The notes beneath the pieces were generated by a model. The model was not told the origin of the DNA and did no database searches. It worked only from the letters and a program-made list of their open reading frames with translations. DNA of 49,695 bases, taken from assembly GCA_964418085.1 (NCBI GenBank), contig CAYQKB010000001.1:1-49695 (forward strand). Direction: 5' to 3'. Numbering within the stretch: position 1 is the stretch's first letter; each line of letters starts with the position of its first letter. Below are positions 21,901 to 43,409 of this stretch, in pieces. This DNA comes from an uncultured Candidatus Saccharibacteria bacterium. GTDB lineage: Bacteria; Patescibacteriota; Minisyncoccia; UBA6257; 2-01-FULL-56-20. Both the position numbers and the translations under genes were made by a program.

Positions 21901-22016
21901 ACAAACACCATCGCCATCGCCGCCATAAGGAAAATGGGCATGAAAAGAAGGGCAAAAAAACCGCGTTCAAGTTTCCTTTTCCTGCCAAAACAATCCGATG
22001 TCGTTAGGAATTGCAT
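18918..22016 (-). CDS. Large secreted fibre-like surface protein (1032 aa) with Thr/Gly/Ser-rich C-terminal tail
   Basis: Signal-like N-terminus FALLFMPIFLMAAMAMVFVLPFTAFA. Recurrent LLTIATSSNIFTVLSNGNVGVGTSSP-type repeats. A tail-fibre-like block ADYGEYVPV...GDLLSIS...VVMALAGRIIAKVTGENGPIVPGDLITAASLRGYGMKA. The last 110 or so aa are low complexity. Confidence 0.8.
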   Translation of the reverse strand: MQFLTTSDCFGRKRKLERGFFALLFMPIFLMAAMAMVFVLPFTAFASPPASPYAPGETLNPTCSPGDANCTVVASLAGASTSTFVSFYLSSSTVGGDSSFVFNSSTKLLSIGTSTITSLSFTSASGTNIGLTGYLQAQNIFDFGGNKYITSTPAAGVTSAVSGTYISVSNATGSVTFNFVNPGFVTSASSVTWSAAQIFNAAQTFSATSTFGSSTIVNGQFVFGNASGTNVSSTNISATGYGLFPTLAYTNASGSNETLSGYLAVRGIATLSTTTVSTTLSIGTSTAVGNALLTIATSSNIFTVLSNGNVGVGTSSPATLFTVATSSNFFNVTAGGLVGISTSTPLGRLHIVGLASSTLTGTVTSSNPFGDLTVTGTSTTLFGTQLQVGDVISTPDQWRIVIAIGSATSALVNFPFNPPLSSATSVFVQAPILRAQDDLGNNALMVHANGVVTADQTQFGALMFPEDAGVVSWTDMSVSSTLASTPVGYSAQLDGNPVMTIYGESDGTGGVQNFRVGINTTNPLSLLTVVSSTPFTATGTLVFLGDGVAGTIIGGNASGTVLGINMSSSFIGDFENYQVNSSTKYVVNASGSLAIATGTQISGGLLTISTSTFIFGVNNSGNVLIATTTAAAGNALLTIATTTNILTILNNGRIGFGTSTFSTSTRFVVCAIGNCTLPTATSTVAQFASVDGTTGTASILARGNITGNSADYGEYVPVAGNAGDYDEGDLLSISSSTELFEKSRRVYDSGLAGVVTRHAAFIAGGENIESKVVMALAGRIIAKVTGENGPIVPGDLITAASLRGYGMKATKMGRVVGIALGSFDGATASETGTVLVFINPHWYAPAIAGDALQGSPAAAVALNVTTFDSSKVYAFKGIQTGQLEVGSAGAPAGITLYDRKTKQPYCLVVEDGAVKSVPGMCGEEGTNGTTGTGDTGTGQTTNDNGTAGTDNTGTTNGGSTSDGQTSDQQATSSTIDTTNASTTTDTNASSTTTGTTDTGTLGTTSSTSGSSNGDVAAPDTSDTTNTTEQVNP

Positions 22017-23559: not shown

Positions 23560-25989
23560 TTAGTTTCTCCGACGTTTTCTATCCTGATAGAAATTATAGA
23601 GGAGGAGGAGCGTGACAATAATGAGCAAAAGCGTCTTCCAGTCCACGATCCACAGCCAACCATATTTCGACGATAGCTCGATATTAAAATGCACTTCGTT
23701 GTTTTCGCTTACCTCAAACGGCTTGCCCTGATACTCGCCATATCCCGGAGCAATGACGCCGATATAGTAATATCCCTGCGGCACCAAAAATGCGTACGTG
23801 CCGCGCACATCCGTGATCTGCGGATTTTCCTGGTGATAATCGTGCGCCGGCCACAGCTCATATTTGTTATTCGCCGGATTGAGCGTATAGAGCGACACAA
23901 CCGCGCCCGGGATCCGCACCTCCTTGTCTCCCTGCTTTTCAAAAACATACCCCTCCGGATCCACGATGGTGGTAAGCCGGATTTCCCGCGTGCCCACGGT
24001 GGGGTCTTTGTACGAAATGAGTGTGATGATATCGTACTCGCCGTCCACGCGCGGTGCATTGATGGTTGCCGTATAAATGCCGTCGCCATCGGGATCGGTG
24101 TATTCAAATTCCGAAAGCGCGAACCGATCTTCTACCTCTCCGGCCGGAACAGACTCGCCCGCGAGCGTATTGTGGCCAGACACCACTCCTCCGCCATTTG
24201 AAATCGTCTGCGTCGGATTCAAGGCATCCGCCACATTCGCGAGCGTCTTGTTCGCGCCTGCAGACGCCTGCGGGATGGCACCGCGTACCGGATCAATCCC
24301 GCTAGAGGCAGAGGCGCGTCTCGTTGATGAGGAATTTTTGATTCCAGCGCCAGTGTGCGTAGAAATCCCCACCGAGTCACCCTGTAAAGCCTCGCGGCCT
24401 CTAACGGGATCAACTATATAATTCGTCTTCGTTGCACGCACACCAAAATCCGGCACCGCAAAAAATATAGAAGCGGAAAGTTTTTGAAGCGGCAGGCTAT
24501 CCTGCAGAGGTATCTCCCGTATCACCGAAGGAGTGACGGGTGCCGAAGGACCGAAAACAGAAACGGCGTCGGCAAAAAGTTTTCCCACAAGACTACTCGC
24601 CAAAACATTCGGCGGAGCCGCAACTCCTAGCTCTTCTTGCGGCAAGCGCGTCCTCAAAACCAGATATCCCCGAACGGAGAGAGCGGGCGCGCCGGGCTTC
24701 ACGGCAAGGTTAAGCGATGAGCCGACCACCGTCCTGATGGTTTTTTGTAAAATGCCTTGATTGTTGAGTGTAAGTCCGATGGAAAAATCTATTTTCTCGC
24801 CGCCCGTCCGCGCAAAAACAATTTCTTTCGGAATCTGCTGTTTTAATTTCGCGCCCATGCTCGCAAGCGGAATTCCCGACGGGAGCGCGAAATGCCCGGG
24901 CGCGATGCCGACAGACGGTATGCCGGAATTTGTAGAAGTGCCGCCGGAGAGAGCAACCGGCGCAATGCCCGCTGCCTCATGTAAGCCGGGCAGGACAAGC
25001 GTGGCATTCGCCAATTTCGGCAAATCCGTCATGCGCGCGATGCCTACGCCAGAGAGCGTCTGGCCGAATTTCGGAAACTGTTTCACAAGCGCCGCAAATT
25101 CTTTGGGGAGCGGTGCCAGCACGAACGCTCCCATTTCCCGCGCAGAAATCAAGTCAAAAAAACCTCCGAGCGCGAAAGGCGCTTTTTTCGTAAGAAGCTT
25201 TGCGATATCAACCTGCGGCAACGGTTTCTGTTTCGGGAAAAATAAATTACCGAAAAAACTTTGCACCCTCCCCAAAATAGAAAGTAACTGGCCGGGAATC
25301 TGGTTTACGATGCTGGCAGTCCCGCCTCCCGTTCCCGGCCGCGTTCCAGCCGGCGACTGATACGGTGGAGCGATCCCCGTTCCCGAAGGATTCATGAGCG
25401 GCTGTCCGGGCGCACTACTCGTCGCGGCAGGATACGTTGACGTAGTGTAATACCCAGTACCTCCCCCACCGCCCCCGCCATTCGACGTTCCTCCGCCGCC
25501 GTTGTTATTCCCTCCTCCGCCATTTCGAACCGATGCCGGCCGCCAGTCTGTTCTCACGGAACAATTTGTGCAATCGAAACTGATGCTCCCCTTCGGCGTG
25601 GAAGAAACCGCTGCCGAGCCGGCAAAGACACCGGAACTTGAAATGCTAACACCACTAAAACTAATCCATCCCAATTTTTCGCCCCACGCGTAGCCCGATA
25701 AAATTCCGGTTCCGTCGTTCGTCACACCACCCAAAGAAGGACTCAGATTAATCCATCCGTAATTTTCGCTCCACGCGTAGCCTGTAAGCACCGTGTCCGT
25801 AATATGCACATTTCCCCCGCTCGTACCAAAATTCACCCAACCGATGTTACTACCCCACGCGTACTTACTTGTCGCGTCAATCGTGCCATCGGTAGTCGAA
25901 GCAAAAGAAACACGAGCTATACATAGAAATGTAAGCAGAGCGGCTCCCACCGCATACACAAAAAGGAACTTCTTTTTTTGAAATTTCAT
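23560..25989 (-). CDS. Large secreted protein with N-terminal YAWG..GWI(N/S)F repeats, carboxypeptidase-regulatory-like domain and C-terminal TM anchor
   Basis: Signal peptide FLFVYAVGAALLTFLCIARVSFA. Repeats YAWGSNIGWVNFG, YAWSENYGWINLS and YAWGEKLGWISFS. C-terminal segment GAVVSLYTL...TDVRGTYAFLVPQGYYYIGVIAPGY followed by the anchor LLLIIVTLLLLYNF. Confidence 0.75.
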   Translation of the reverse strand: MKFQKKKFLFVYAVGAALLTFLCIARVSFASTTDGTIDATSKYAWGSNIGWVNFGTSGGNVHITDTVLTGYAWSENYGWINLSPSLGGVTNDGTGILSGYAWGEKLGWISFSGVSISSSGVFAGSAAVSSTPKGSISFDCTNCSVRTDWRPASVRNGGGGNNNGGGGTSNGGGGGGGTGYYTTSTYPAATSSAPGQPLMNPSGTGIAPPYQSPAGTRPGTGGGTASIVNQIPGQLLSILGRVQSFFGNLFFPKQKPLPQVDIAKLLTKKAPFALGGFFDLISAREMGAFVLAPLPKEFAALVKQFPKFGQTLSGVGIARMTDLPKLANATLVLPGLHEAAGIAPVALSGGTSTNSGIPSVGIAPGHFALPSGIPLASMGAKLKQQIPKEIVFARTGGEKIDFSIGLTLNNQGILQKTIRTVVGSSLNLAVKPGAPALSVRGYLVLRTRLPQEELGVAAPPNVLASSLVGKLFADAVSVFGPSAPVTPSVIREIPLQDSLPLQKLSASIFFAVPDFGVRATKTNYIVDPVRGREALQGDSVGISTHTGAGIKNSSSTRRASASSGIDPVRGAIPQASAGANKTLANVADALNPTQTISNGGGVVSGHNTLAGESVPAGEVEDRFALSEFEYTDPDGDGIYTATINAPRVDGEYDIITLISYKDPTVGTREIRLTTIVDPEGYVFEKQGDKEVRIPGAVVSLYTLNPANNKYELWPAHDYHQENPQITDVRGTYAFLVPQGYYYIGVIAPGYGEYQGKPFEVSENNEVHFNIELSSKYGWLWIVDWKTLLLIIVTLLLLYNFYQDRKRRRN

Positions 25990-26120
25990 AATAAAGCTTT
26001 ACTTCATTAGTATACATCTTCATTGTGATACAAAAAACAGAGCTTTTATACACAGTCTCAAACGCGACGTTTTTCTTCTTATTTCTCTCTATCTAGTTGG
26101 CTATTTTTCTTTTTTAATCC

Positions 26121-30566: not shown

Positions 30567-30640
30567 TGGGGGATCGTCTAATGGTAGGACAGTGGCCTTT
30601 GGAGCCATCAATCTAGGTTCGAATCCTGGTCCCCCAGCCA
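30567..30640 (+). tRNA. tRNA-Gln (anticodon UUG)
   Basis: Hand-folded cloverleaf: acceptor TGGGGGA/TCCCCCA (U1-A72, G73), D arm GTCT/GGAC, anticodon arm GTGGC-CTTTGGA-GCCAT, T arm CTAGG-TTCGAAT-CCTGG, with an encoded CCA. Confidence 0.9.
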
Positions 30641-30732
30641 TCAATACTTATTATCCTAAGACCGAGCGGGGTAAAAGATTGATATCTCCGTACTGCCCAC
30701 GTCATACCGGCTGAGCGCCGTATTCAAGAAAG

Positions 30733-30765
30733 AAAAACCGCCTAACTCAATCGGCGGTTTTTCTT
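30733..30765 (+). terminator. Rho-independent terminator after tRNA-Gln
   Basis: AAAAACCGCC-loop-GGCGGTTTTT followed by a T-rich tail. Confidence 0.6.
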
Positions 30766-30837
30766 TGCCTACTGGATTGATTTCTTTGGTGAAACCGTAG
30801 TAGATTGTTAGCATATTAAAGACTGTCAACCCCTACT

Positions 30838-31836
30838 ATGGTCAACCCAGAAACACAAAAAATAGCATACTTGTTTGGTGCCGGCGCGACCAGCGCCGAA
30901 CTCTCAAATACTGAGCAAGAGGACGACAAAGACAAGGTCGGCTTATCGGTTGGTGATGTGACAAGGAGAGTTATTATAAAAGCAAAAGCTGACGAAAGTT
31001 TTCTCAAAAACGATAGAATACTTTTGGACCGTGCAGCAGACTCTTCGAATATAGAACTGTTCATAAGTCTCATTGAAAGCAACCACTACGCCTTTGACGA
31101 TGTGTCGGTGATAGTGGATCACCTTAAAGGATTGGTCGAGAAAGACATCAAAAGCATATTAACCAAAGAGCGAACCGATAAGTTTCTCCTTCATAAAGCC
31201 CTCCTTGAACTTCACAAATATAATGAAAAAGAAATTGTCATCGGTTTAATATCGTTAAACTACGATACTGTTTTAGATGAGGCCTACAAGTTATATTACG
31301 GAGAGCCGGACTATAGCTTTTCTTTTCCTAAAGAGAAGCCCGATGAAGCCAAACCCCCATTACTGAAACTTCACGGATCCTTTAGCTGGGATGATGTTGA
31401 AATAAATGGGAGAAAAAGGAAGATTCCCATTATCCCTTTAGGAGTAAACAAAAACTATTTACGATTACCCTATAATTTCATCTGGGGTCGCGCATTGGAA
31501 ATCTTAATAAAATGTGACAAACTACGTGTAATCGGCTGTTCCCTCAGCCAGAACGACATACATCTAATTGACCTATTATTCAAAGCACACCTAGAAAAAA
31601 GAGCCCCCTTCGAGATCGAAATAATAAGCTCCGAAGAAACTGGCCAAGAGATTAAGGGCAAATATGCCTTTTTCCCTAAAATTACCACTGCAGAGAAAAT
31701 TGAAGAAACGCTAATGCCAGATGCAAAAAGAGGTATAAATGTTTTTAAAGAGTGGCTAAAGGCAAAAGGAAGACGAGTATTGAAAGAAGATGCACAAATT
31801 CAAAAAACTACATATTTAAAAGAGATAATATTATAA
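30838..31836 (+). CDS. SIR2-like (SIR2_2 family) protein, probable NAD-consuming defence effector
   Basis: Motifs in family order: YLFGAGATSAE, ISLNYDTVLDEAY, LLKLHGSFSW and LRVIGCSLSQNDIHLIDLL. Confidence 0.8.
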   Translation: MVNPETQKIAYLFGAGATSAELSNTEQEDDKDKVGLSVGDVTRRVIIKAKADESFLKNDRILLDRAADSSNIELFISLIESNHYAFDDVSVIVDHLKGLVEKDIKSILTKERTDKFLLHKALLELHKYNEKEIVIGLISLNYDTVLDEAYKLYYGEPDYSFSFPKEKPDEAKPPLLKLHGSFSWDDVEINGRKRKIPIIPLGVNKNYLRLPYNFIWGRALEILIKCDKLRVIGCSLSQNDIHLIDLLFKAHLEKRAPFEIEIISSEETGQEIKGKYAFFPKITTAEKIEETLMPDAKRGINVFKEWLKAKGRRVLKEDAQIQKTTYLKEIIL

Positions 31837-31840
31837 GAAA

Positions 31841-32998
31841 ATGGTTACGAAAAAAATAAACAATAAATCAGAAAGTAAGAGAACTGGATTTTCCCTTACG
31901 ATAAAAAAGCTCATTCTCGATGAGTTCATTTTGGGTATTGATCTCGACGCAGATTATCAACGTGAAAAAATATGGTCTACCGAAGATCAGAAATTACTAT
32001 TAGACTCGATTATTAGCGATATAGATATACCAAAAATTTATCTCGCAAAGCTCAAAGACGACAAACAGTTTGACTATGAATGTATTGATGGAAAACAGCG
32101 CATGGCCACCCTTCTTAACTTTTTCAAACCAGAGCAGGATAGAGAGAGAAAAAAACCACTAACCCTTACCTTTGATAATCGGGATTATTCTTACCAAGAA
32201 TTAAAAAATGAATACCCAAAAGTTGCGGAGAGGATCGAGAATTATAATTTGGATTTCGTCGTTTATGATAAAAGCAGCCTTGAGGATGGTGCAGAAGGTG
32301 AAAAATTGATCCGAGAAATATTCAGGCGTTTACAGTTGGGGATAAGACTCAATTCGGGAGAAAGATTAAAAGCGCATCGTGGCGCTATGAGGGATTTTAT
32401 TTTTGAAGAGATGGGCGGAGCCGCTCCCTTTTTTAAGCATACGAGCTTGTCAGAAAAGAGATTCTCCAGGCAATTTACTTTAGCGCAAATTTGTTTAAAT
32501 TCATTTATGCGCAAAGAAATTTATGAGAATGAAAAAGATATAAACGGCTTCGTAAGAGCGCGATTAGAAGATATAGAGGACTTTTTTGACGAAAAATCGA
32601 ACCTGAAAACAGACGATAAAAACTTCGCTCGCATAAGAACTATTTTGAAGAATATGGATACTGCCTTTGGAGCTAACGCAGCTGGTATTTCCAGTAGGGC
32701 CGTGGCTGTTTCCGCCTATCTATTTGCCGAAGGCCTTAGCCTAGAAGGAAAAGCTGATTCAATCTCCGAGTTTGCGACTTTCTATATTAAGTTGCTGGCA
32801 GAAATAAAGAGAAATATGGAATTTGTCAGAAAATTTGAAAGCCCAGAAAACACGAAGGTAATGGAAGGTTTTCAGAAGTATATTTTGCAAGCCTCGGTTG
32901 AACCCTACTCTATAAAAAGAAGGAATGTTTTCTTAAACGAGGCCTTTGGATACTTTAGAAGTTCGACTACCAAGGGAAAAATAATTGGAGACAAATAA
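31841..32998 (+). CDS. DUF262 (ParB-like / GmrS N-terminal type) domain protein without a recognisable DUF1524/HNH domain
   Basis: DADYQREKIWSTEDQKLLLDSIISDIDIPKIYL and CIDGKQRMATLLNFF (DGQQR-type motif). Starts 4 nt after the SIR2 gene stop. Confidence 0.8.
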   Translation: MVTKKINNKSESKRTGFSLTIKKLILDEFILGIDLDADYQREKIWSTEDQKLLLDSIISDIDIPKIYLAKLKDDKQFDYECIDGKQRMATLLNFFKPEQDRERKKPLTLTFDNRDYSYQELKNEYPKVAERIENYNLDFVVYDKSSLEDGAEGEKLIREIFRRLQLGIRLNSGERLKAHRGAMRDFIFEEMGGAAPFFKHTSLSEKRFSRQFTLAQICLNSFMRKEIYENEKDINGFVRARLEDIEDFFDEKSNLKTDDKNFARIRTILKNMDTAFGANAAGISSRAVAVSAYLFAEGLSLEGKADSISEFATFYIKLLAEIKRNMEFVRKFESPENTKVMEGFQKYILQASVEPYSIKRRNVFLNEAFGYFRSSTTKGKIIGDK

Positions 32999-33003
32999 AA
33001 TTC

Positions 33004-34236
33004 TCACAGATTTTCCCAAATAATAATACTTTCCCTAGAAGGATTCCTTTTGAATTTTTTCATTTGTTGAGCGCTGTTCCCCCTATGTCTTGCGATAATT
33101 ATAGTTTTCTTTGACAACCCAGCCTGCCCTCCGATCTTTGCCAATATTTTATCAACGGGGATGTTAACGCCCCCAAAGCGCACATTGCTTACAACAAGGG
33201 CCAATTTCCCTTTTTTCTTAAGGCATTTTTTCATCTGGAGCAGCGAAAGATACATATCTTCAAAATAGCCCTCAATCATCGCCGGAACTTGTGAATTATT
33301 TAGGCCTGCCTTTTTTATCTTGGCAATTATAGTATCGATGATCTTAGGTTTTTTATAGTCCGTCGCCTCAAACTGTTTTTTTGCCTCAACGTGAGATCTA
33401 AGCGTGTTGTATCTGATTCGTTTCAACTCGTTGTGATCTTTAACGAAGCCGACTATTAACTCGAGTCCATATATTCTTGTGTAATCATGCCTATTTGGAT
33501 ATGGCGGCGAGGTGATAATCGCATCAAATTTTCTTTTTGTTGTTAATGTTCTTGAATCTGCAACTTCTGCTTTTGCTTTAGTGACAGTGAATTTCAAGGA
33601 TTTATTGAACTTTTCAACGTCTCCGATCATTGTCTCAATTTTCGATAAAAATTGTGGGCGCACATTTTTTGAGGAAATCCTTTTTTTCGTGATTCGTAAA
33701 AATCCCCCTGCTTTTGCAGTATTGCTCACCGATTCAAGAATACTTAGCAGGCCGAGCATATAAAAATCTCTTACTTTCGGGTTTCGAATTGTATTGATCT
33801 GAGTTTTCAGACAAAGTACCTCTTTTCTTATATCGTAGCTAAAAGCTACATTTATGATCTTAATATCTGGCAAATAAAGATCCCTTTTTGTTAGTTTATC
33901 CTTTTTATTGAATTTCTTAAGTTGTCGCCTTAGTAAGGTGGGCTTGTAAGTCCTAGTTTTAACATTCGACAAAAACACCGAGAAAGGGAGTATATCAAAA
34001 CCCTCTGAGTTAATACCCAATTCCTTACATGCGAGGAGCGTTGTCCCGCCGCCACAGAAAGGATCTAAAACCCACGAGTTTTTTGTAAGACCAAACTCTT
34101 GAACGAGTTTTTCCACTAAAGCTTTTGAATAGCCGTGCTTAAAAGCATGCCAGTTATATATTGACGCGTCTCGATCGCGAGACGGAGATATCAATGATCC
34201 ATATCCGTTTGTTGGCAAAATCCGTTTTATTTTCAT
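33004..34236 (-). CDS. Stand-alone DNA methyltransferase (motif I before SPPY motif IV; N4-C or N6-A)
   Basis: LDPFCGGGTTLLA (AdoMet motif I) is followed about 185 aa later by ITSPPYPNRHDY. The start was moved to MKIKRILPT, 5 nt after the hsdR stop. The stop lies 5 nt from the convergent DUF262 gene stop. Confidence 0.85.
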   Translation of the reverse strand: MKIKRILPTNGYGSLISPSRDRDASIYNWHAFKHGYSKALVEKLVQEFGLTKNSWVLDPFCGGGTTLLACKELGINSEGFDILPFSVFLSNVKTRTYKPTLLRRQLKKFNKKDKLTKRDLYLPDIKIINVAFSYDIRKEVLCLKTQINTIRNPKVRDFYMLGLLSILESVSNTAKAGGFLRITKKRISSKNVRPQFLSKIETMIGDVEKFNKSLKFTVTKAKAEVADSRTLTTKRKFDAIITSPPYPNRHDYTRIYGLELIVGFVKDHNELKRIRYNTLRSHVEAKKQFEATDYKKPKIIDTIIAKIKKAGLNNSQVPAMIEGYFEDMYLSLLQMKKCLKKKGKLALVVSNVRFGGVNIPVDKILAKIGGQAGLSKKTIIIARHRGNSAQQMKKFKRNPSRESIIIWENL

Positions 34237-34240
34237 AGCT

Positions 34241-36544
34241 TTAGACAGCCGTTTTCCCGTACAAGTTTTTTTGAAAGTCAAAGAAGGTTGAACGGATTTT
34301 TTCTACTCCTCCCAACACCTTTTCCGCATCTGCAATAGCGTGATATTTCAAGTTTAATAAAATCGGTAATTTTTCTTCATCAAGTTCTTCCACGCCACTA
34401 TGTTCATATTTCGCTAGTACGAATTCCAAAAATTCTTTTTGTCGTGTATCTAGGTCTTCAAAGATCTTTGTCCTTGTTCGTTCAACTCTTTGCTTTCTTG
34501 TAATCGGCGGGGTTAAGAAAGAAATATACGCCAAAACATCAAACAAATCGCTTTGCTCAGCATTTATCATTTTTTGCAGTATTTCTAATTCATCCTTGCC
34601 ATAACCAAGTGCGCTAATCTTTTCCAGAAAAGTTTTTCTAGTTGTTGGGTTTGACCAGATTTTGCGTAACTCATCTTCGTTTTTGAAAAATTCTGGCAAT
34701 GTGCCAAACATATTATCCATAAACTCTTGTATGGAAATTGGCTTGCCATCAGCGCTCCAGAACGAAGTGGCAATCATATGCTGTATTTCTCGCTCCTTGC
34801 CATCACGTAGCTTGATTTTCAGCCTCCTCTTGGGCTCTTCCGTCGGTTCTGGCGATAATGGCGGCTCTTTGGGCTCCTTTGGTTCCTTCGGCGTTCGTGG
34901 CTCTTTCTCTACGGTTTGATCAATTGGCTCTCCGTCCCACTCCGGATCAGAAAAATGGTGATAGGCATCCACAAAATCAAGGATCGTAAAGTATTCCTTA
35001 CCGTCAAAAAGCCGTGTACCACGTCCGATGATTTGCTTAAATTCAATCATCGTATTGATTGGGCGCATCAAGACAATATTCCGAATATTCCTAGCATCAA
35101 CCCCGGTTGAAAGCTTTTGCGAGGTAGTCAAAATTGTGGGGATTGTTTTTTCATTGTCCTGAAACTCACGCAAGAATTGCTCCCCACGTGCGCCATCATT
35201 AGCGGTTACACGCACGCAGTAATTCGGCTCCTTACTCTCCTTCGTCTGGTTGATTAAATCCCGAACTGCAAGGGCGTGATTTTGGGTAGCGCAAAAAACA
35301 ATAGTCTTCTCGTTTTGATTGATCTCGTCCAGCATTACCCTTACTCGCTTAGCTTCACGCTCCTTAATTTCAATTATCTTGTTGAAGTCTTCTTCCTGAT
35401 AAATTTTTCCTTCCTCGACCTCACCCTCTATGATCTGGTCATCAGATGTATAAACGTATTCATCCAATGTAGTTTGAATTCTTTTAACTTTGAACGGCGT
35501 AAGAAATCCATCATTGACACCCTCCTTTAGTGAATAGGTATAAACCGGATCGCCAAAGTACTTGTAGGTATCAACGTTGTCTTTTCTTTTCGGCGTTGCT
35601 GTTAAACCAAGCTGCACCGCCGGAGAAAAGTATTCCATAATTCCACGCCAGTTGCCTTCATCATTTGCGCCGCCACGATGACACTCGTCTATAACAATAA
35701 AATCAAAAAAGTCCGGTGGATAACCACCGAAATACGGCGTATCGCCAGATCCACTCATGAACGTTTGGAATATAGTAAAAAACACGCTTCCGTTTGTGGG
35801 TACTGCGCCTTTCTTCCTTATATCCAAGGGGTTTATTCTTACCAGTGCATCTTCTGGAAACGATGAGAAAGTATTGTATGCTTGATCCGCTAGAATATTT
35901 CTGTCAGCCAAGAAAAGGATACGTGGACGCCGTCCGCCATCATGTTGTAGAGTCCATCTAGTTTGATAGAGCTTCCAGGAAATCTGAAATGCAATCGCTG
36001 TTTTTCCGGTACCAGTCGCAAGGGTCAGTAATATTCGTTTCTTATCCTCAGCTATTGCATTAAGCGCATTGTTAATGGCTATCTCCTGGTAATATCGCTT
36101 TCCAAGCTCGCCCTCCAGAGGGATTGAGGTAAACTTTTCTTTCCATTCGTTTTGATCAGAAAAAACTACATTCCATAACTCATCCGGCGTAGGGAATTTT
36201 TCTACGTAGCCCTCTTTGCCAGTTTTCATTGAGATCTGATAAATCTCCCTTCCGTTAGTCGCATACGTATGCTCAATTTTGAGTTTCTCAGCATACGCCT
36301 TGGCTTGTGCTACGCCCTCAGTCGCTGGCAGGCTTTCTTGCTTAGCTTCTACTACAGCCAGCTTTTGATTTTTGAATACCAAAATATAGTCGGCAATTTC
36401 CGGTTTTGCTCGTGTGCCACCAGTCTGGATGCGTCCTTCGGTAATACGAAATTCCCGGAGGATTTTTGATCCTTCTGCCTCACCCCAACCGCTGGCTTTC
36501 AGCTTTGGGTCAATGTATTCAGCTCTTGTTTCTGCTTCGTTCAT
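34241..36544 (-). CDS. hsdR: Type I restriction enzyme R subunit
   Basis: N-terminus MNEAETRAEYIDPKLKASGW, helicase motif I LATGTGKT, motif II VIDECHRG, and an EcoEI-R-type C-terminal domain after a PKEPKEPKEP linker. Confidence 0.9.
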   Translation of the reverse strand: MNEAETRAEYIDPKLKASGWGEAEGSKILREFRITEGRIQTGGTRAKPEIADYILVFKNQKLAVVEAKQESLPATEGVAQAKAYAEKLKIEHTYATNGREIYQISMKTGKEGYVEKFPTPDELWNVVFSDQNEWKEKFTSIPLEGELGKRYYQEIAINNALNAIAEDKKRILLTLATGTGKTAIAFQISWKLYQTRWTLQHDGGRRPRILFLADRNILADQAYNTFSSFPEDALVRINPLDIRKKGAVPTNGSVFFTIFQTFMSGSGDTPYFGGYPPDFFDFIVIDECHRGGANDEGNWRGIMEYFSPAVQLGLTATPKRKDNVDTYKYFGDPVYTYSLKEGVNDGFLTPFKVKRIQTTLDEYVYTSDDQIIEGEVEEGKIYQEEDFNKIIEIKEREAKRVRVMLDEINQNEKTIVFCATQNHALAVRDLINQTKESKEPNYCVRVTANDGARGEQFLREFQDNEKTIPTILTTSQKLSTGVDARNIRNIVLMRPINTMIEFKQIIGRGTRLFDGKEYFTILDFVDAYHHFSDPEWDGEPIDQTVEKEPRTPKEPKEPKEPPLSPEPTEEPKRRLKIKLRDGKEREIQHMIATSFWSADGKPISIQEFMDNMFGTLPEFFKNEDELRKIWSNPTTRKTFLEKISALGYGKDELEILQKMINAEQSDLFDVLAYISFLTPPITRKQRVERTRTKIFEDLDTRQKEFLEFVLAKYEHSGVEELDEEKLPILLNLKYHAIADAEKVLGGVEKIRSTFFDFQKNLYGKTAV

Positions 36545-37686
36545 AATGAATTAGTAAATGCCGTTCTTAAAATTGATTTTCTAAATTCTCCTAGATAGGA
36601 AATTTTATGTTCGTAGTTATTCTCTAATTTACTTGTATCTTCTACTAAGATATCAAGTTTTTTAGCAATAGTTTTCTGTTCGGAAATAGATGGAATTAAA
36701 AGTGAGCAATTTAATATGTCGTTTTTTCTAAGATTTGTTTGGTTCTCGCCGTTATCAAAATTTAAGAAGTATTTGCTTCTATTGAGTTGATAATATAAAA
36801 ACTTTTTATCAAAAACTTTGGTGCGAATAGCGCAGATCCGCTGATTTAAACTGTAGGTCTCATCCTTGTCTATAAGAAAACATTTTGCCAACGTTTTTCC
36901 ATTTGGTACATCGCTCATCACCATAACAATATCCCCACGAAAAAGCGGGAAAAGCTGTTTTTTTGTTCTCTTATAAATGCGTCCGTCAGACGAAATAAAT
37001 TTTGAATTAACAACGATATAATTACCATCCTCATCTATGCATTTTTCATGCGCTTTTCCATTGAAAAAATCGCAGGTATCACTCAGGGTTTTCTCTCCCC
37101 AGTTTTTACCGGGATTGGCAAAGACGTTATGTAAATATGATTCAAAAAGCTCGTGAGGGGCTTGTAAGTTCTTTTTGGTATTATCTTGCGCCTTCGCAGT
37201 TTTTTCAAAGGCTTCGTTCAAGGCTTTTACAATACGCTCCTGAACAGGAAGCGGAGGTGTTAATACTGGAAAATCGTGAATATCATCTTTGCTGAAACCA
37301 GCCTGTGCAGATCTAGCTGCAACTTTTAATAATCTGCTCTGAAATTCATCCGATATGAGATAGTAATAAAGAAACTTCCTATCCAATAGATGAGGGTTGG
37401 GTATTGTTTTCATTACCGCTACATTGAATGCACCTTTTTTATTTACTAAAATTTTTCCAACTGATGCGCCATACCGTCCAATCAGAATATCATCCTCATT
37501 GCACAATCTGTTCTTTTTTGATTCAGGAATATACGTAATATGTTTATCACTCGCAAAATCTCGTATTTGCAAAAAACGTACATAACCCCTTCGCGACTCG
37601 TAAATAAAATTGCTTTTGGGTGGCTGAGAGCCACCTTGAAAATCGCAAATCTCGCCAAGTTTTTTTATTTGCCAATTACTTTTCAT
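36541..37686 (-). CDS. hsdS: Type I restriction-modification specificity subunit
   Basis: Two target-recognition-domain halves, each starting W..KKLGEICDF / W..KTLSDTCDF, separated by conserved helices. A 4-nt overlap links it to hsdR. Confidence 0.85.
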   Translation of the reverse strand: MKSNWQIKKLGEICDFQGGSQPPKSNFIYESRRGYVRFLQIRDFASDKHITYIPESKKNRLCNEDDILIGRYGASVGKILVNKKGAFNVAVMKTIPNPHLLDRKFLYYYLISDEFQSRLLKVAARSAQAGFSKDDIHDFPVLTPPLPVQERIVKALNEAFEKTAKAQDNTKKNLQAPHELFESYLHNVFANPGKNWGEKTLSDTCDFFNGKAHEKCIDEDGNYIVVNSKFISSDGRIYKRTKKQLFPLFRGDIVMVMSDVPNGKTLAKCFLIDKDETYSLNQRICAIRTKVFDKKFLYYQLNRSKYFLNFDNGENQTNLRKNDILNCSLLIPSISEQKTIAKKLDILVEDTSKLENNYEHKISYLGEFRKSILRTAFTNSL

Positions 37687-39145
37687 GAATTTGTTTTAAA
37701 ATACTATCCAAAATGTCTTCGCTTTCTTTATCCAATTTTTTCATGGCATCTAAAATTTCTTTCGGGCTCCGAAGCGATACTTCTGCACCGCCATAAGGAT
37801 TTTTTACTGATAAATCAAAAGTGCCTTTATCTATTTTTGAAAGATCAACAGACCAAGAATTTTCTGAATTCGCCTTAGTTTTTTGCAAGTCAACAAATTC
37901 AGCTAAGTCTTTTTCGTTAAGTGGATGGTTCTTGCCTAAATTTCTATCCAGGTCTAGGTGATAATACCAAACTTTTTTTGTGGGCGTGCCTTTGTCAAAA
38001 AAGAGAATAACGGTTTTCACACCAGCCCCCTGAAAAGCTCCACCCGGAAGATCTAGGATAGTGTGGAGATTGCAGCTTTCTAGAAGAAGTTTACGAAGTG
38101 AGACAGAAGCATTATCGGTGTTGGAAAGAAAAGTATTTTTAATAACGATGCCAGCCCTACCGCCAGCTTTGAGAATTTTTATGAAATGCTGCAAAAACAA
38201 ATAAGCGGTTTCCCCGGTCTTAATTGGAAAGTTTTGTTGAATTTCTCTTCCAATACCCGCACCAAAAGGAGGATTTGCAAGAATTATGTCGTAGCGGTGT
38301 TTTTCTCGAATGTCGTTAATATTCTCGGCAAGTGTATGAGTGTGCAATATGTTCGGCGCCTCAATGCCATGCAATATCATATTCATTACACCGATAATGT
38401 AAGCCAGGGATTTAATTTCCTTGCCATAAAAAGTGTCTTTCTGTAGTTTTACTGATTCGGCGGTTGAGAGATCTTTACTCTTCTTGAGGTAATCAAAAGC
38501 CTCTACAAGGAAACCCCCTGATCCGCATGCGCCATCATAAATTTTATCTCCAACTTTTGGGGCAACGACTTTGACGATAGTTCTAATGAGAGGTCGAGGC
38601 GTGTAATACTCGCCGCCATTGCGCCCAGCATTGCCCATTTTTTTGATCTTTTCTTCATAAAGATGCGAAAGCTCGTGTTTTTCACGATCTGTACGGAAAT
38701 GCATTCCATCAACAATATCTAAAATCTCCCTTAGCCTGTATCCGCTCTGTATTTTATTTTTTAACTCGTTAAAAATCTCGCCAATTTTGTATTCAATAGT
38801 ATTCGGTCTATCGGCTTCTGTCTTGAATTTTTTTAGGTACGGGAAGAGTTTGCTATTTACGAAATCCCTAAGATCGTCCCCAATAAGAGCTTTGTTATGA
38901 TCCAATTTGCCATCTGTCGTTTTTGGCTCAGCCCAAACTTTCCAGCGATACTGCGGGTCAATAATGAAGGAGTGTTTTTTGCCAGCCAGAGCCGCTTCGG
39001 TTTTTTTAGTCTCCTCCAAATCATCAAGATACTTCAAAAAAAGTATCCAGGAAGTTTGCTCAATATAATCCAGCTCGGTAGCACTTCCAGCATCCCTGTG
39101 CAGGATATCGTCTATATTTTTGAACGCTTGCTCGAACATATACAT
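37676..39145 (-). CDS. hsdM: Type I restriction-modification N6-adenine DNA methyltransferase subunit
   Basis: IYDGACGSGGFLV (motif I), ILANPPFG (motif IV) and an HsdM N-terminal helical domain. An 11-nt overlap links it to hsdS. Confidence 0.9.
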   Translation of the reverse strand: MYMFEQAFKNIDDILHRDAGSATELDYIEQTSWILFLKYLDDLEETKKTEAALAGKKHSFIIDPQYRWKVWAEPKTTDGKLDHNKALIGDDLRDFVNSKLFPYLKKFKTEADRPNTIEYKIGEIFNELKNKIQSGYRLREILDIVDGMHFRTDREKHELSHLYEEKIKKMGNAGRNGGEYYTPRPLIRTIVKVVAPKVGDKIYDGACGSGGFLVEAFDYLKKSKDLSTAESVKLQKDTFYGKEIKSLAYIIGVMNMILHGIEAPNILHTHTLAENINDIREKHRYDIILANPPFGAGIGREIQQNFPIKTGETAYLFLQHFIKILKAGGRAGIVIKNTFLSNTDNASVSLRKLLLESCNLHTILDLPGGAFQGAGVKTVILFFDKGTPTKKVWYYHLDLDRNLGKNHPLNEKDLAEFVDLQKTKANSENSWSVDLSKIDKGTFDLSVKNPYGGAEVSLRSPKEILDAMKKLDKESEDILDSILKQIHEK

Positions 39146-39166
39146 AGAAGTTTATTCTAAAAATGC

Positions 39167-40504
39167 TTATTTTTCCAGCGGACATACTACCTTGTTTCTG
39201 ATCGCGAATTTCGTTTTTATCAGCGCGAGCAGCTCTCGTTTTTCGAGCACGTTGCCCTCTCGAAGCACGTACTTCGCATAAATTTTCGCATCTACTTTTT
39301 CCGTTTCTTCTTCCGCATTTTTTATCCCGAGCACCATTTTTCTGAACTTATGGTACCGGTTTATTTCGTCTTTAAACCTATGGGATATGCCAAGCTCGCT
39401 GATGTCTATTTTATCGATGAGCCCGGAAAGCTGATTGACGAGTTCTTCCTCGCGAATATACGGACTCTTACACTCTCTCGTTTTTGAGTTCGTGCAGCCG
39501 TAGTAGACGTATCGCGCCGTCGTGCCATTTTTGAGCTGCTTATATTTCTCCTCGGCCGTGATGCCCGATCCGCAGAGGCCGCACGTCATGAGCTTTGTGA
39601 AGGCGAATTCTTTGCTCTCGCGTTTTATCTGATCGCGCTTCAGTTGTGCTTGGGCAGACATGAATAAATCCCTTGAAATAATTGGCTCGTGCTTGCCAGT
39701 ATGAAAGTTCCCGCTTCCTTTGGGATATTCGAGGATGCCGTAGTAGAAGTGATTTTGCAAAATTATGTACACATTCGAGAGCGAGAGATGATGGTTATGG
39801 ATTGTGCGAAAATTGAGCTCGAATCTCAACCAGTGATAAATCTTTTTTCCGCTCCAGCCGCCGTATGCGTGTTTTTCAAAAATCTGCTTGATGACATGCG
39901 CGCGCTCCGGATCGATAAGCACATGGCATTTTTTATCGACACGCTTTTCATTCAAATATCCGGTGGGCGCGGTTCCCGGCCAGAGTCCCATCTCAACTCT
40001 CGTTCGTAAGCCACGTTTCACATTCACGCTCTTGTTATCATTTTCTAGTTTCGCTTGGCTGCACAAAATCATCAGCAAGAATTTCTCGTTTGGCGAATTT
40101 GAGAAGCGTTGGCCGTAGGTTCGGATTTCAATGAGCAACTTCTGGTCCATTAAGTCCACGAGCGACCCCAAGTCGCCTGCGTTTCTTGATAAGCGGTCTG
40201 GTGCCCATGTGAGGATACCCGTATATCTCCCGCTCCGGATATCGGTCAGTATTTCCGCGAACACCGGGCGCTGCCCCGAATCTTTTGCCGAATGTGACTC
40301 CCTGCGGATGTCCACAATCTCCAGACCCTCCCGTTCGGCGATCTGCAACATTTCCTTCACCTGCGAATCTACCGAGAGCACCTGACGCTCCTCTGATTCG
40401 CTCGATTTCCGCGCGTAGAGGCAGTATTTGACCTTTATTGGGAGCTGGACTGCGGTTGGGGCTCCGGCTCCCTCAAGCCCCTTTGTTTGGGTATTCATAC
40501 CCAA
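39167..40504 (-). CDS. Large serine recombinase
   Basis: Resolvase-type catalytic domain (YCLYARKSSESEERQVLSVDSQ, APDRLSRNAGD), recombinase domain and zinc ribbon (CGLCGS...YYGC). Lies 21 nt upstream of hsdM on the same strand. Confidence 0.9.
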   Translation of the reverse strand: MGMNTQTKGLEGAGAPTAVQLPIKVKYCLYARKSSESEERQVLSVDSQVKEMLQIAEREGLEIVDIRRESHSAKDSGQRPVFAEILTDIRSGRYTGILTWAPDRLSRNAGDLGSLVDLMDQKLLIEIRTYGQRFSNSPNEKFLLMILCSQAKLENDNKSVNVKRGLRTRVEMGLWPGTAPTGYLNEKRVDKKCHVLIDPERAHVIKQIFEKHAYGGWSGKKIYHWLRFELNFRTIHNHHLSLSNVYIILQNHFYYGILEYPKGSGNFHTGKHEPIISRDLFMSAQAQLKRDQIKRESKEFAFTKLMTCGLCGSGITAEEKYKQLKNGTTARYVYYGCTNSKTRECKSPYIREEELVNQLSGLIDKIDISELGISHRFKDEINRYHKFRKMVLGIKNAEEETEKVDAKIYAKYVLREGNVLEKRELLALIKTKFAIRNKVVCPLEK

Positions 40505-41378: not shown

Positions 41379-43409
41379 ATGATTTCTCGCGAGACAATTC
41401 AAAAGATCCTAGAGACCGCCGTCCACGCCCCCTCTGGCGAAAACTCCCAACCGTGGAAATTTGTTGTTGAAGGCGATCAAATCAAAATATTTAATATCCC
41501 CGAGAGAGATGAATCACTATACAATGTAGACCAAAAAGGATCGTTCGTTGCTCACGGCGCACTTTTAGAGAATATCTTGATAGCATCTTCCGTGGCTGGA
41601 TACAAAGCAAGCTACAAACTGTTTCCTGATAATAGCGATAAAAATTTGGTCGCAATAGTATCATTTTTTGAATCTTCTCCTCGCGAAGAGCAGCTTTATC
41701 CCTTCATCACTAAGCGTTCCACCAATAGAAAACCGTATGAGGTAAAACCACTAAGCGAACAACAAGTTAGTGAATTGATTAATGTTTCTCAAGAAATAGG
41801 AGGAGGAATAGTAAAGTTTATAACTGACCGAAATAAAATAGAGCAACTTGCAGAAGCGGCAAGTGCGAATGAGAAAGTAATGTTTAGCAATAAATATCTG
41901 CATAACTTCTTTTTTACTCACATCAACTGGACAGAAAATGAAGAACGGGAAAAGAGGGTTGGATTTTATATAAAGGCGCTTGAAATGCCTGCGCCTGCCC
42001 AAAAAGCAATGAAACTTTTTAAGCATTGGCCGATTATGAAAGTCCTTAGCAAGTTAGGCTTAGCGAATAAAATTGCCCAAGAGAATACAAAGGGATTTAT
42101 GGCATCGGCAGCAATCGGAGCTGTTTTGGGGGACGGCGATACGCCAAGTGATTATGTTGCCACCGGAAGATTGATGCAACGACTTTGGCTAAAGGCAACA
42201 AAAATGGGTCTAAGTATACAACCTTTAACAGGAGCTTTGTTTCTCTATAAAAATATGGCGAAGCGGGAAAGCAATAAATTTTCTGCGAACCAAATTGAAA
42301 TCTTGGAAAATGCCAATACCACAATAAAGGCCGCGTTTGATGTTCAGAAAAAAACAATCGCGATGATGTTTCGGATTGGCCATGGCGACGCGCCGACAGC
42401 TCGCTCGATGAAATTAGCGCCGATTATTTTAAATGGCAGCGAAAAAACAGAGCCGACCAAAAAAAATCCTGAAGTTTTGACTACGAGGAAGGGAATAATT
42501 AATCATATTCTTGCGGATTTAAAAATCCTGGAAAACAATCCGTCTTTTCATAATAAGTATGCTATCCGAGAAAATATTGCCTTTTTCGAAGCAATCAAAT
42601 CCGTTCCAAATTATATAAAGTGGCTCGTCCAGAAGGCGGGAAAACTGGATCGAACAAAACTTTTAGAACTTACTGATTTTCCGTTTCCAAAATGGGATCG
42701 GGAAATGCATCGAAAGTTGATAGAAATGGAGAAAAAAGATTTTCCTGGACTTGTAGCCCCGCTGGTTAATAGGGTTACTGAACTCATTCTGGCAAAAAAA
42801 GACCGCTTTATCGGAGTAGGGCTTGGATGCGGAGGAATGGAAGTTGAACGACAAGTTATCAAAAAGCTACTGGAAAAGAATCATCCGCATCAAGTTGTTC
42901 TAATTGGGGTGGACAAATCTCCTGTTACTCATGAAGTCGCGAGGGAAAACTTGCGCGAAGTAGAGCCGCATATTGATATTCATGAAATAGAAAATCTGAA
43001 TTCATCTTCACTCGAAAATTTGCTAAAAGGAGATAAACATAGACACATAGTCATACTTTGCAAAAACGATATATTCAAACTTCCGGAGCATTTCCCGCCT
43101 CAATTTTTTGATGTCATCTACCATTCATTATTCAAGCATCATCTAATGGGCAATCACAAAGCAGAAATGGACTCGGTCGTAACTTCGCTTAGGAAATGCG
43201 GTCTCGAGTATGATGGTTTCAAAAATTGGCCGATAATAATCCCTCAAACTTTAACCGGCTGGAGTCATCCCGCGTTTTTTAATGCAGAAATATTCTCTAA
43301 CTTTAGGTTTCTAGAAAAACATGAATTAATGAAAATTTATAGTGGGTTAAAATTATCTTTTTTTAAACGAACTGGCACATATCTATTAGAACACCGCCAC
43401 GAAGGATGA
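41379..43409 (+). CDS. Fusion of an Acg-type double nitroreductase-like domain with a C-terminal SAM-methyltransferase-like domain
   Basis: N-terminus TIQKILETAVHAPSGENSQPWKF and ITKRSTNRKPY. The C-terminal half has FIGVGLGCGGMEV (motif-I-like) and VLIGVDKSP. Confidence 0.65.
   Translation: MISRETIQKILETAVHAPSGENSQPWKFVVEGDQIKIFNIPERDESLYNVDQKGSFVAHGALLENILIASSVAGYKASYKLFPDNSDKNLVAIVSFFESSPREEQLYPFITKRSTNRKPYEVKPLSEQQVSELINVSQEIGGGIVKFITDRNKIEQLAEAASANEKVMFSNKYLHNFFFTHINWTENEEREKRVGFYIKALEMPAPAQKAMKLFKHWPIMKVLSKLGLANKIAQENTKGFMASAAIGAVLGDGDTPSDYVATGRLMQRLWLKATKMGLSIQPLTGALFLYKNMAKRESNKFSANQIEILENANTTIKAAFDVQKKTIAMMFRIGHGDAPTARSMKLAPIILNGSEKTEPTKKNPEVLTTRKGIINHILADLKILENNPSFHNKYAIRENIAFFEAIKSVPNYIKWLVQKAGKLDRTKLLELTDFPFPKWDREMHRKLIEMEKKDFPGLVAPLVNRVTELILAKKDRFIGVGLGCGGMEVERQVIKKLLEKNHPHQVVLIGVDKSPVTHEVARENLREVEPHIDIHEIENLNSSSLENLLKGDKHRHIVILCKNDIFKLPEHFPPQFFDVIYHSLFKHHLMGNHKAEMDSVVTSLRKCGLEYDGFKNWPIIIPQTLTGWSHPAFFNAEIFSNFRFLEKHELMKIYSGLKLSFFKRTGTYLLEHRHEG

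Follow-up and report, generated by a model that had tools for sequence, protein, structure and literature searches.

Gene organization of the locus

The window analyzed here is a stretch of 49,695 nucleotides from an uncultured Candidatus Saccharibacteria bacterium (contig CAYQKB010000001.1, assembly GCA_964418085.1). It contains two co-directional open reading frames (ORFs), gene A for a SIR2-like protein and gene B for a DUF262 protein, which a first-pass annotation had proposed as a two-gene anti-phage system. Both reading frames and the 4 nt from the stop of gene A to the start of gene B were confirmed, as was their position near a tRNA-Gln gene, a Type I restriction-modification (R-M) operon (hsdR, hsdS and hsdM) and a serine recombinase gene. 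A third gene, gene C for a DNA methyltransferase, converges on gene B with 5 nt between the two stops. A methylase proved to be a near-obligate third component of the related loci, and the two-gene description was therefore replaced by that of a three-gene cassette, for which the comparative-genomic support, as far as sequences can tell, is unusually clean. Coordinates are listed in Table 1.

Gene A passes the Pfam model SIR2_2 (PF13289) with 33.2 bits against a cutoff of 24.5 (E=6e-8, residues 137-242); its PADLOC matches, to the generic and the pAgo-associated SIR2 models (SIR2 and Aga_SIR2), are weak. The AlphaFold2 model, built from an alignment of 20 homologues, has a predicted local distance difference test score (pLDDT) of 82 and a predicted template modelling score (pTM) of 0.85. 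Its top Foldseek match in the Protein Data Bank (PDB) is the SIR2 subunit of SIR2-HerA (E=7e-7), followed by DSR2 and classical sirtuins, which bears out the SIR2-like assignment of gene A. The motif series read from the single sequence is also complete and is invariant in the 20 homologues (G14-A-G-A-T18, N141-Y-D143, K177-L-H-G-S181 and I-G233-C-S...D240); only the first motif, announced as GAGxS, reads literally GAGAT, a conservative difference. N141, D143 and H179 are the candidate catalytic residues, with the catalytic Asn and His invariant in the 20 homologues, and N141/H179 were matched to N112/H152 of ThsA by motif position. The homologues are 320-353 aa long, and no Zn-ribbon or peptide-binding module is evident in gene A. 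To our knowledge, all of the defence-type SIR2_2 proteins characterized so far (ThsA, DSR1/2, SIR2-HerA and SPARSA) degrade nicotinamide adenine dinucleotide (NAD+), and by analogy with them gene A would be an NAD+ hydrolase.

Gene B passes the Pfam model GmrSD_N/DUF262 (PF03235) with 54 bits (cutoff 33.2, E=3e-14, residues 35-164), and the motifs on which its identification had been based are invariant among homologues (D38-Y-Q-R41, I63-P64 and D83-G-K-Q-R87). The nuclease half was rightly reported as absent, because no DUF1524 or HNH match was found with Pfam at E<=0.1. In the structural model (pLDDT 77, pTM 0.56) an N-terminal alpha/beta domain is followed by a long helical domain, and the C-terminal half is all-helical. 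PADLOC models matched by gene B are NsnA (E=3.6e-21, residues 32-281), PD-T4-2_A (E=1.3e-14) and, weakly, one REase_II model (E=1.5e-6). Searches of the gene A and gene B family profiles against PDB sequences returned nothing useful.

The DUF262 family of gene B is compact, with 99 clusters (50% identity) at E<=1e-30. In its closest outgroup the DUF262 proteins end in an HNH nuclease at the C-terminus. Relatives of greater length proved to be fusions, either DUF262-HNH or pentapeptide, and the best 150 cluster representatives include no SIR2-DUF262 or methylase-DUF262 fusion. The fused HNH domain of the nearest outgroup is consistent with an effector swap. Thus, the earlier suggestion that SIR2 could replace the nuclease as effector fits the relatives of gene B, although that scheme contained no methylase.

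Gene C matches Pfam N6_N4_Mtase (E=5e-13) and PADLOC MTase_II (E=1.6e-77), whereas PDB sequences gave a weak match to DpnA and nothing else. It carries the motifs FCGGG at residue 75 and TSPPY at residue 258. The SPPY form of motif IV marks N4-cytosine rather than N6-adenine methylases, and from this motif gene C is predicted to be an N4-methylcytosine (m4C) methylase. The longest possible ORF, 33004..34281, would overlap the hsdR stop by 41 nt. The most likely start is the ATG at 34236, preferred because the resulting 410 aa equal the family median and the N-termini of homologues agree in the alignment; it avoids the hsdR overlap and places the beginning of the gene 4 nt past the hsdR stop. 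Gene C may be co-transcribed with the Type I operon, of which the first-pass annotation appears to have taken it for a part.

Distribution and conservation of the SIR2-DUF262 pair

Relatives were sought by a word-indexed search of 5.8 billion proteins, which returned about 800 for each of genes A and B, mostly 50-78% identical and in many cases located on contigs of equal length. A genome set of 80 loci was obtained by scanning one genome per GTDB species with the SIR2 alignment, and a reciprocal scan of metagenomic contigs with the DUF262 alignment added 80 further loci, making 160 in all; neighbour genes were identified by our own ORF calling and hidden Markov model searches. The 160 loci represent 5 archaeal lineages and over 12 phyla of bacteria, and the cassette occurs in about 150 uncultured bacteria and archaea. 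In the genome set the bacterial loci include Acidobacteriota, Nitrospirota, Patescibacteria, Verrucomicrobiota, Bacteroidota, Omnitrophota, Chloroflexota, Proteobacteria, Zixibacteria and Spirochaetota, and the archaeal loci belong to Iainarchaeota, Aenigmatarchaeota, Micrarchaeota, Altiarchaeia and Bathyarchaeia. Among lineages of soil and groundwater (Acidobacteriota, Patescibacteria, DPANN and Bathyarchaeia) it is widely distributed.

The order of the pair is kept almost without exception. The DUF262 gene lies directly 3' of the SIR2 gene in 75 of the 77 judgeable genome loci (the contig ends too early in 3 of 80), and the SIR2 gene lies directly 5' of the DUF262 gene in all 73 metagenome loci with room for it, so the synteny expected of homologues of the two genes was found. 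In 148 loci the genes are adjacent and co-directional, usually with a gap of -8 to +17 nt. Because the pairwise identities of the SIR2 and DUF262 proteins are strongly correlated (r=0.96, 104 loci), the pair is, judging from these identity matrices, inherited as a unit.

Mobile elements were observed at several loci. Two loci, L079 and L080, have an intact methylase but a SIR2 gene that is interrupted or truncated by an IS481-type transposase (rve/HTH_32). In a third (L007:2642-3934) the pair is intact and is closely followed on its 3' side by a transposase from this cluster. A close homologue of the serine recombinase of the window (528 bits) stands beside the cassette in a Falkowbacteria locus (L044:14396-15784), so that in Patescibacteria the two may move as one.

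Linkage to methylases and exchange of methylase classes

When all neighbours within 5 kb were clustered by single linkage, one further conserved family emerged, a DNA methyltransferase present in 67 of 79 loci. It nearly always adjoins the pair, in one of two layouts: ahead of it in the same direction (MT>SIR2>DUF262), or behind it and converging on it (SIR2>DUF262<MT), the latter being the layout of the window. In both sets together, 123 loci could be judged for a methylase, the remaining contigs ending too near the pair. A PF01555 methylase lies within 2.5 kb of the pair in 119 of these 123 (118 as counted over both sets, plus L022), and some DNA methylase is near the pair in 121; only L062 and L074 among the judgeable loci have none. 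The clearest exception to the m4C pattern is the archaeal locus L046 (10217-12599), in which the pair touches a module of a Vsr/BsaWI-like restriction endonuclease and a C5-methylase instead of an SPPY methylase. In L070 a D12 methylase, 570 nt upstream of the pair, takes the place of PF01555.

The methylase of the window's class (MT0) adjoins the pair in 37 genome loci, and the median gap between methylase and pair in this class is 3 nt; where the gap is wider, a Type II restriction endonuclease gene occupies it. The same triad is found in the two closest relatives of the window genes among genes for tRNA editing, a hydrolase, a sigma factor and a transporter, and elsewhere the genes next to the cassette encode ribonucleotide reductase, aconitase or UvrA. 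Since the linkage persists among housekeeping genes, it is not explained by clustering in defence islands. The defence-island setting first described for the pair is thus true of the window but not general, as the closest relatives and many others lie among housekeeping genes.

Three methylase classes, weakly similar to one another, accompany the pair: MT0 (about 410 aa), MT1 (about 337 aa) and MT2 (about 435 aa). All three carry SPPY. MT0 is the partner in all deep-branching and archaeal loci, and all classes occur in a crown group in which the SIR2 and DUF262 proteins are at least 55-65% identical. The class of the nearest neighbour agrees in 94-95 of 104 loci, so methylase replacement has been repeated but not constant. 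This exchange of weakly similar classes argues that methylase and pair are linked through the DNA mark and not through a conserved protein-protein contact.

Some cassettes contain a nuclease. An XhoI-family endonuclease (PF04555, E=4e-79) occurs together with MT1 in 24 loci, and an XcyI/BsoBI-like endonuclease with a longer MT0 variant in 7. These amount to about 31 loci, or about a quarter, and about 88, including the window, have no recognizable nuclease. The recognition sites are CTCGAG for XhoI, CYCGRG for BsoBI and CCCGGG for XcyI, all of the C^YCGRG type. The companion nucleases are all related to such enzymes, which may point to a shared or nested target.

In three loci, from Bacteroidales, Ignavibacteria and Melioribacter metagenome-assembled genomes (MAGs), the cassette lies inside a Type III operon in the order mod-[MT-SIR2-DUF262]-res with gaps of 0-3 nt (L034:6813-14725, L068 and L072). 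A Type I operon stands beside the cassette in the window, L038 and L053. As a separate observation, in two candidate-phyla bacteria a protein of about 1000 aa, Type ISP/IIG-like, ends 0-52 nt before the SIR2 gene (L029:6815-9904 and L054); this ORF has N6_Mtase and the Type_ISP_C specificity domain, with no helicase-nuclease part.

Broken ORFs were compared between pairs with and without a methylase. Pseudogenisation in the methylase-less pairs gave a Fisher p of about 0.05, a value that includes broken ORFs mostly from Nanopore MAGs and some loci misclassified by length thresholds. The frameshifts in Nanopore-derived MAGs are likely sequencing errors, and no weight is placed on this comparison.

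Comparison with known defence systems

PADLOC-DB v2.0.0 (2023) contains no defence model for the set of SIR2, DUF262 and methylase, only partial matches, and no description of a SIR2 and DUF262 pairing was found in the open-access papers and preprints searched. In these sources the pairing belongs to no named system, in line with the first-pass annotation, which recognized none, and the three-gene combination appears undescribed, although its parts and logics are known.

By architecture gene B resembles a protein of Menshen. The core architecture of NsnA, a ParB-DUF262 domain with a helical DNA-binding domain (about 385 aa, no nuclease), is that of gene B. A survey of ParB-DUF262 neighbourhoods names only GmrSD, PD-T4-2, Dazbog, Ssp and Menshen; it reports that Menshen often adjoins R-M systems or solitary methylases, and for Menshen beside solitary methylases it speculates that ParB-DUF262 may attack genomes without the modification (PMC12065111, 2025). 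Two features set the cassette apart. Its predicted effector is the SIR2 encoded upstream, and its methylase is near-obligate, whereas about 28% of Menshen operons are linked to R-M-type systems or methylases. Neither the NsnB ABC/OLD-type ATPase nor the NsnC inPIN-nuclease lies beside the pair in the window, and no such conserved cluster was found in the 80 genome loci; Menshen was rejected on these grounds.

Gene B shares with GmrSD, BrxU and SspE an N-terminal DUF262 NTPase with a DGxQR box and a functional tie to DNA modification. These systems were also rejected, since gene B is without the DUF1524/His-Me nuclease half. Furthermore, GmrSD and BrxU act against DNA that carries modifications and can do without a cognate methylase, and the partner of SspE is a phosphorothioation system with no methylase. 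Genes A and B match no PADLOC DzbA or DzbB profile of Dazbog at E<=0.1, and Dazbog was rejected for this reason. For PD-T4-2, gene B matches the A-subunit model as given above and gene A matches no model.

In its SIR2_2 fold and catalytic Asn/His, gene A resembles the effectors of SIR2-HerA, DSR1/DSR2, Thoeris (ThsA) and SPARSA. SPARSA (SIR2-APAZ/pAgo) is the closest analogue in logic, in that a SIR2 NADase is turned on once nucleic acid of an invader has been recognized. The cassette differs from these systems in its predicted sensor, a ParB-like NTPase, and apparently in defining self through methylation. Pfam and PADLOC gave no matches to HerA, SLOG, TIR, pAgo/APAZ or the long C-terminal domain of DSR in the window genes or the conserved neighbour clusters. 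Thoeris was excluded because no ThsA, SLOG or TIR match occurs in the window genes (PADLOC, Pfam), SIR2-HerA (Nezha) because no HerA ATPase is found among the window neighbours or conserved neighbour clusters, and DSR1/DSR2, single polypeptides of about 1000 aa with a C-terminal sensor, because gene A has just 332 aa.

The cassette is similar to Type II R-M systems in having an abutting, cognate-looking methylase, a compact mobile form and repeated methylase exchange. It differs in that no nuclease-fold protein is present in the window or most loci, and the part of the restriction enzyme would be taken by an NTPase and an NADase protein. Epigenetic self-marking combined with a non-classical effector would be shared with BREX, DISARM, Dnd and Ssp, in which DUF262 accessories recur (BrxU, DndB, SspE). 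Unlike these, the cassette has only three genes, is without PglZ, PglX, DrmA/B, DndACDE and SspABCD, and has SIR2 as its predicted effector.

Proposed mechanism and alternative explanations

The sequences show the domain identities, the intact motifs, the likeness of the gene A fold to defence NADases, the near-obligate linkage of the three genes and the repeated replacement of the methylase. With a probability of about one half, the cassette is a self-contained, horizontally mobile system of R-M logic, in which the methylase marks self, DUF262 senses unmodified DNA and SIR2 depletes NAD+. In such a system, the gene C methyltransferase (predicted m4C) would mark the host chromosome. Gene B, an NsnA-like ParB-fold NTPase with a helical DNA-binding domain, would engage unmarked DNA, probably as an NTP-dependent clamp or switch, possibly by NTP-gated clamping like that of ParB at parS. 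It would then activate the SIR2 protein of gene A, probably through assembly on foreign DNA, an activation that would resemble target recognition in SIR2-APAZ/pAgo systems. Hydrolysis of NAD+ by SIR2 would lead to arrest of the infected cell (abortive infection), or the invading element or plasmid would fail to establish. In loci with an XhoI- or XcyI/BsoBI-like enzyme, one methylase could cover both a nucleolytic arm and an NADase arm. The NADase activity, the sensing of unmodified DNA, a physical complex of the gene A and gene B proteins and an antiphage role are what we infer. The sensor role first given to DUF262 is kept here, although not as a plain sensor of DNA or modification, because the methylase linkage favours self/non-self discrimination of the R-M kind. 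The survey cited above arrived independently at a similar speculation for ParB-DUF262 proteins beside solitary methylases.

Several points weigh against this R-M-like reading. The Pfam SIR2 match spans about one third of gene A with a modest score, and the best fold match of gene B, to BrxU, is marginal (E=0.017, at a pTM of 0.56), ParB/Noc CTPases coming next. Every homologue found is from an uncultured organism, and no copies of the family were detected in PLSDB plasmids, which held only distant DUF262 or methylase relatives, or in IMG/VR. Restriction endonucleases in about a quarter of the loci and cassettes inside Type I or III operons would fit an accessory or guard role too. The rare C5 and D12 partners imply that the mark need not be m4C. 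Genome composition gives no clear signal of the site: CTCGAG ranks 2-3 among 64 six-base palindromes with observed/expected ratios of 0.64-0.74 in loci of all three classes, a ranking made without control genomes and with depletion just as strong for other palindromes, and in the window 11 CTCGAG sites were observed against 15.7 expected, which was not counted as depletion. Finally, a cell that lost its whole NAD+ pool whenever a site lacked methylation would pay a high price in natural transformation or repair.

Among the alternatives, a modification-licensed defence similar to SspE or Dnd is conceivable, if rather unlikely. DUF262 would bind methylated host sites and there be positioned or primed, and another phage cue would trigger SIR2. 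The DUF262 NTPase of SspE senses the phosphorothioate marks of its own host, GmrSD and BrxU recognize modified cytosines, and a likely sensing of methylated DNA has been reported for Dazbog; moreover, SPPY is common to the main methylase classes, so a single m4C mark could be the ligand. C5 or D12 methylases replace the usual partner in rare loci, however, and methylase classes, probably with their sites, have been swapped while the sensor remained more than 55% identical. A blocking mark explains such swaps more easily. R-M logic was ranked above licensing because a blocking mark better survives changes of the enzyme and, occasionally, of its chemistry (C5, D12).

A guard or back-up function like that of PrrC, which sits within a Type I locus, has a low probability. 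Here the pair would monitor the neighbouring methylase or R-M system and fire when an anti-restriction factor of a phage disables it. The frequent fusion of cassettes to R-M operons, in the nuclease-bearing loci and those of Type III and Type I described above, is in its favour. Most loci, however, including the closest relatives of the window, have a solitary methylase and no restriction endonuclease to guard, and a guard that touches its client is not expected to tolerate at least three unrelated methylase families.

There is a similarly small chance that the architecture is as proposed but the SIR2 protein is not a bulk NADase. It could modify a target with NAD+, for instance through ADP-ribosylation of unmethylated DNA or a phage protein, or act as a deacylase. 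ADP-ribosyltransferases and deacylases do belong to the SIR2 superfamily, classical sirtuins are among the fold matches, and local action would spare the cell from death at each unmethylated site. The best fold matches of gene A are nevertheless defence NADases, and neither a Zn-ribbon nor a peptide-binding module is evident in it. A related and equally doubtful idea is that of a non-nucleolytic restriction enzyme: a ParB-like clamp would form on unmethylated sites and SIR2 would use NAD+ locally, giving methylation-based immunity without cleavage or cell killing. If so, SIR2 might ADP-ribosylate the foreign DNA or the proteins bound to it.

The same biochemistry may also serve a selfish addiction module, whose main selected effect would be post-segregational killing that stabilizes a mobile cassette. 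Classical Type II R-M systems act as addiction modules, the cassette is compact and has spread horizontally over bacteria and archaea at more than 50% identity, and a serine recombinase and insertion sequences are associated with it. This possibility, to which little weight is given, is compatible with defence and the two are not mutually exclusive; the lack of plasmid- or phage-borne copies in PLSDB and IMG/VR speaks against it. Very unlikely is an autonomous system of SIR2 and DUF262 with a methylase nearby merely through co-localization in defence islands: these two genes are the most tightly coupled (the 4-nt gap and the correlation of identities) and the methylase of the window is on the opposite strand behind a Type I operon, but a methylase is adjacent in nearly all judgeable loci, mostly within tens of nucleotides, in either orientation and also among housekeeping genes.

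If the R-M-like reading is true, the cassette unites epigenetic self/non-self discrimination, as in R-M, BREX and Ssp, with abortive infection by NAD+ depletion, as in Thoeris, DSR, SIR2-HerA and SPARSA, two arms of immunity that are mostly considered apart. It would then provide a minimal three-gene model for the sensing of DNA modification state by DUF262, relevant to Menshen, Dazbog and PD-T4-2, and would account for a class of SPPY-type methylases that seem to be orphans in uncultured bacteria and archaea. Screens of cultured strains have missed the family, probably because the homologues found all come from uncultured organisms and none are in the PLSDB and IMG/VR collections searched.

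The low-GC island and other features of the window

The cassette and a complete Type I R-M operon lie together in an island of low G+C content (GC), with a tRNA gene and a recombinase gene at its edges (Table 1). The Type I operon (34241-39145) immediately precedes gene C in the same orientation and is regarded as a neighbouring system. No att-like direct repeats were found for the tRNA-Gln island in a search of the window.

Table 1 Features of the low-GC island and the three-gene cassette
Feature	Position	Strand	Evidence	Remark
Low-GC island	30567-40504		GC 0.36-0.41 vs ~0.45-0.50 outside	Cassette and complete Type I R-M operon inside
tRNA-Gln(TTG)	30567-30640	+	ARAGORN; Rfam 62 bits	Left island edge; context, outside the system
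Gene A, SIR2_2-family protein, 332 aa	30838..31836	+	Pfam PF13289	Predicted NAD+-consuming effector
Gene B, stand-alone ParB-like DUF262 NTPase, 385 aa	31841..32998	+	Pfam PF03235	Predicted DNA/modification sensor
Gene C, DNA methyltransferase, ~410 aa	33004..34236	-	Pfam N6_N4_Mtase	Predicted self-marking component
hsdR	34241-36544	-	Pfam ResIII, EcoEI_R_C	
hsdS	36541-37686	-	Pfam Methylase_S	
hsdM	37676-39145	-	Pfam N6_Mtase, HsdM_N	
Large serine recombinase	39167-40504	-	Pfam Resolvase, Recombinase, Zn_ribbon_recom	Right island edge; mobility context

Just past the tRNA-Gln gene, positions 30733-30766 comprise a G+C-rich hairpin and a T-run behind it, roughly 70 nt ahead of the start of SIR2. 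It looks like an intrinsic terminator, which would leave a short, unrecognized promoter region for the pair; a consensus scan found no sigma-70-like promoter site between the hairpin and the SIR2 start.

Outside the island, an ORF of 676 aa at 41379-43409 has a nitroreductase fragment of about 30 residues at its N-terminus as its sole Pfam match, the remainder being unannotated. Two other stretches of the window, 19000-21000 and 24000-26000, have a GC of 0.53-0.57 against a background of about 0.45, and they are spanned by very long minus-strand ORFs at 18918-22016 (1032 aa) and 23560-25989 (809 aa).

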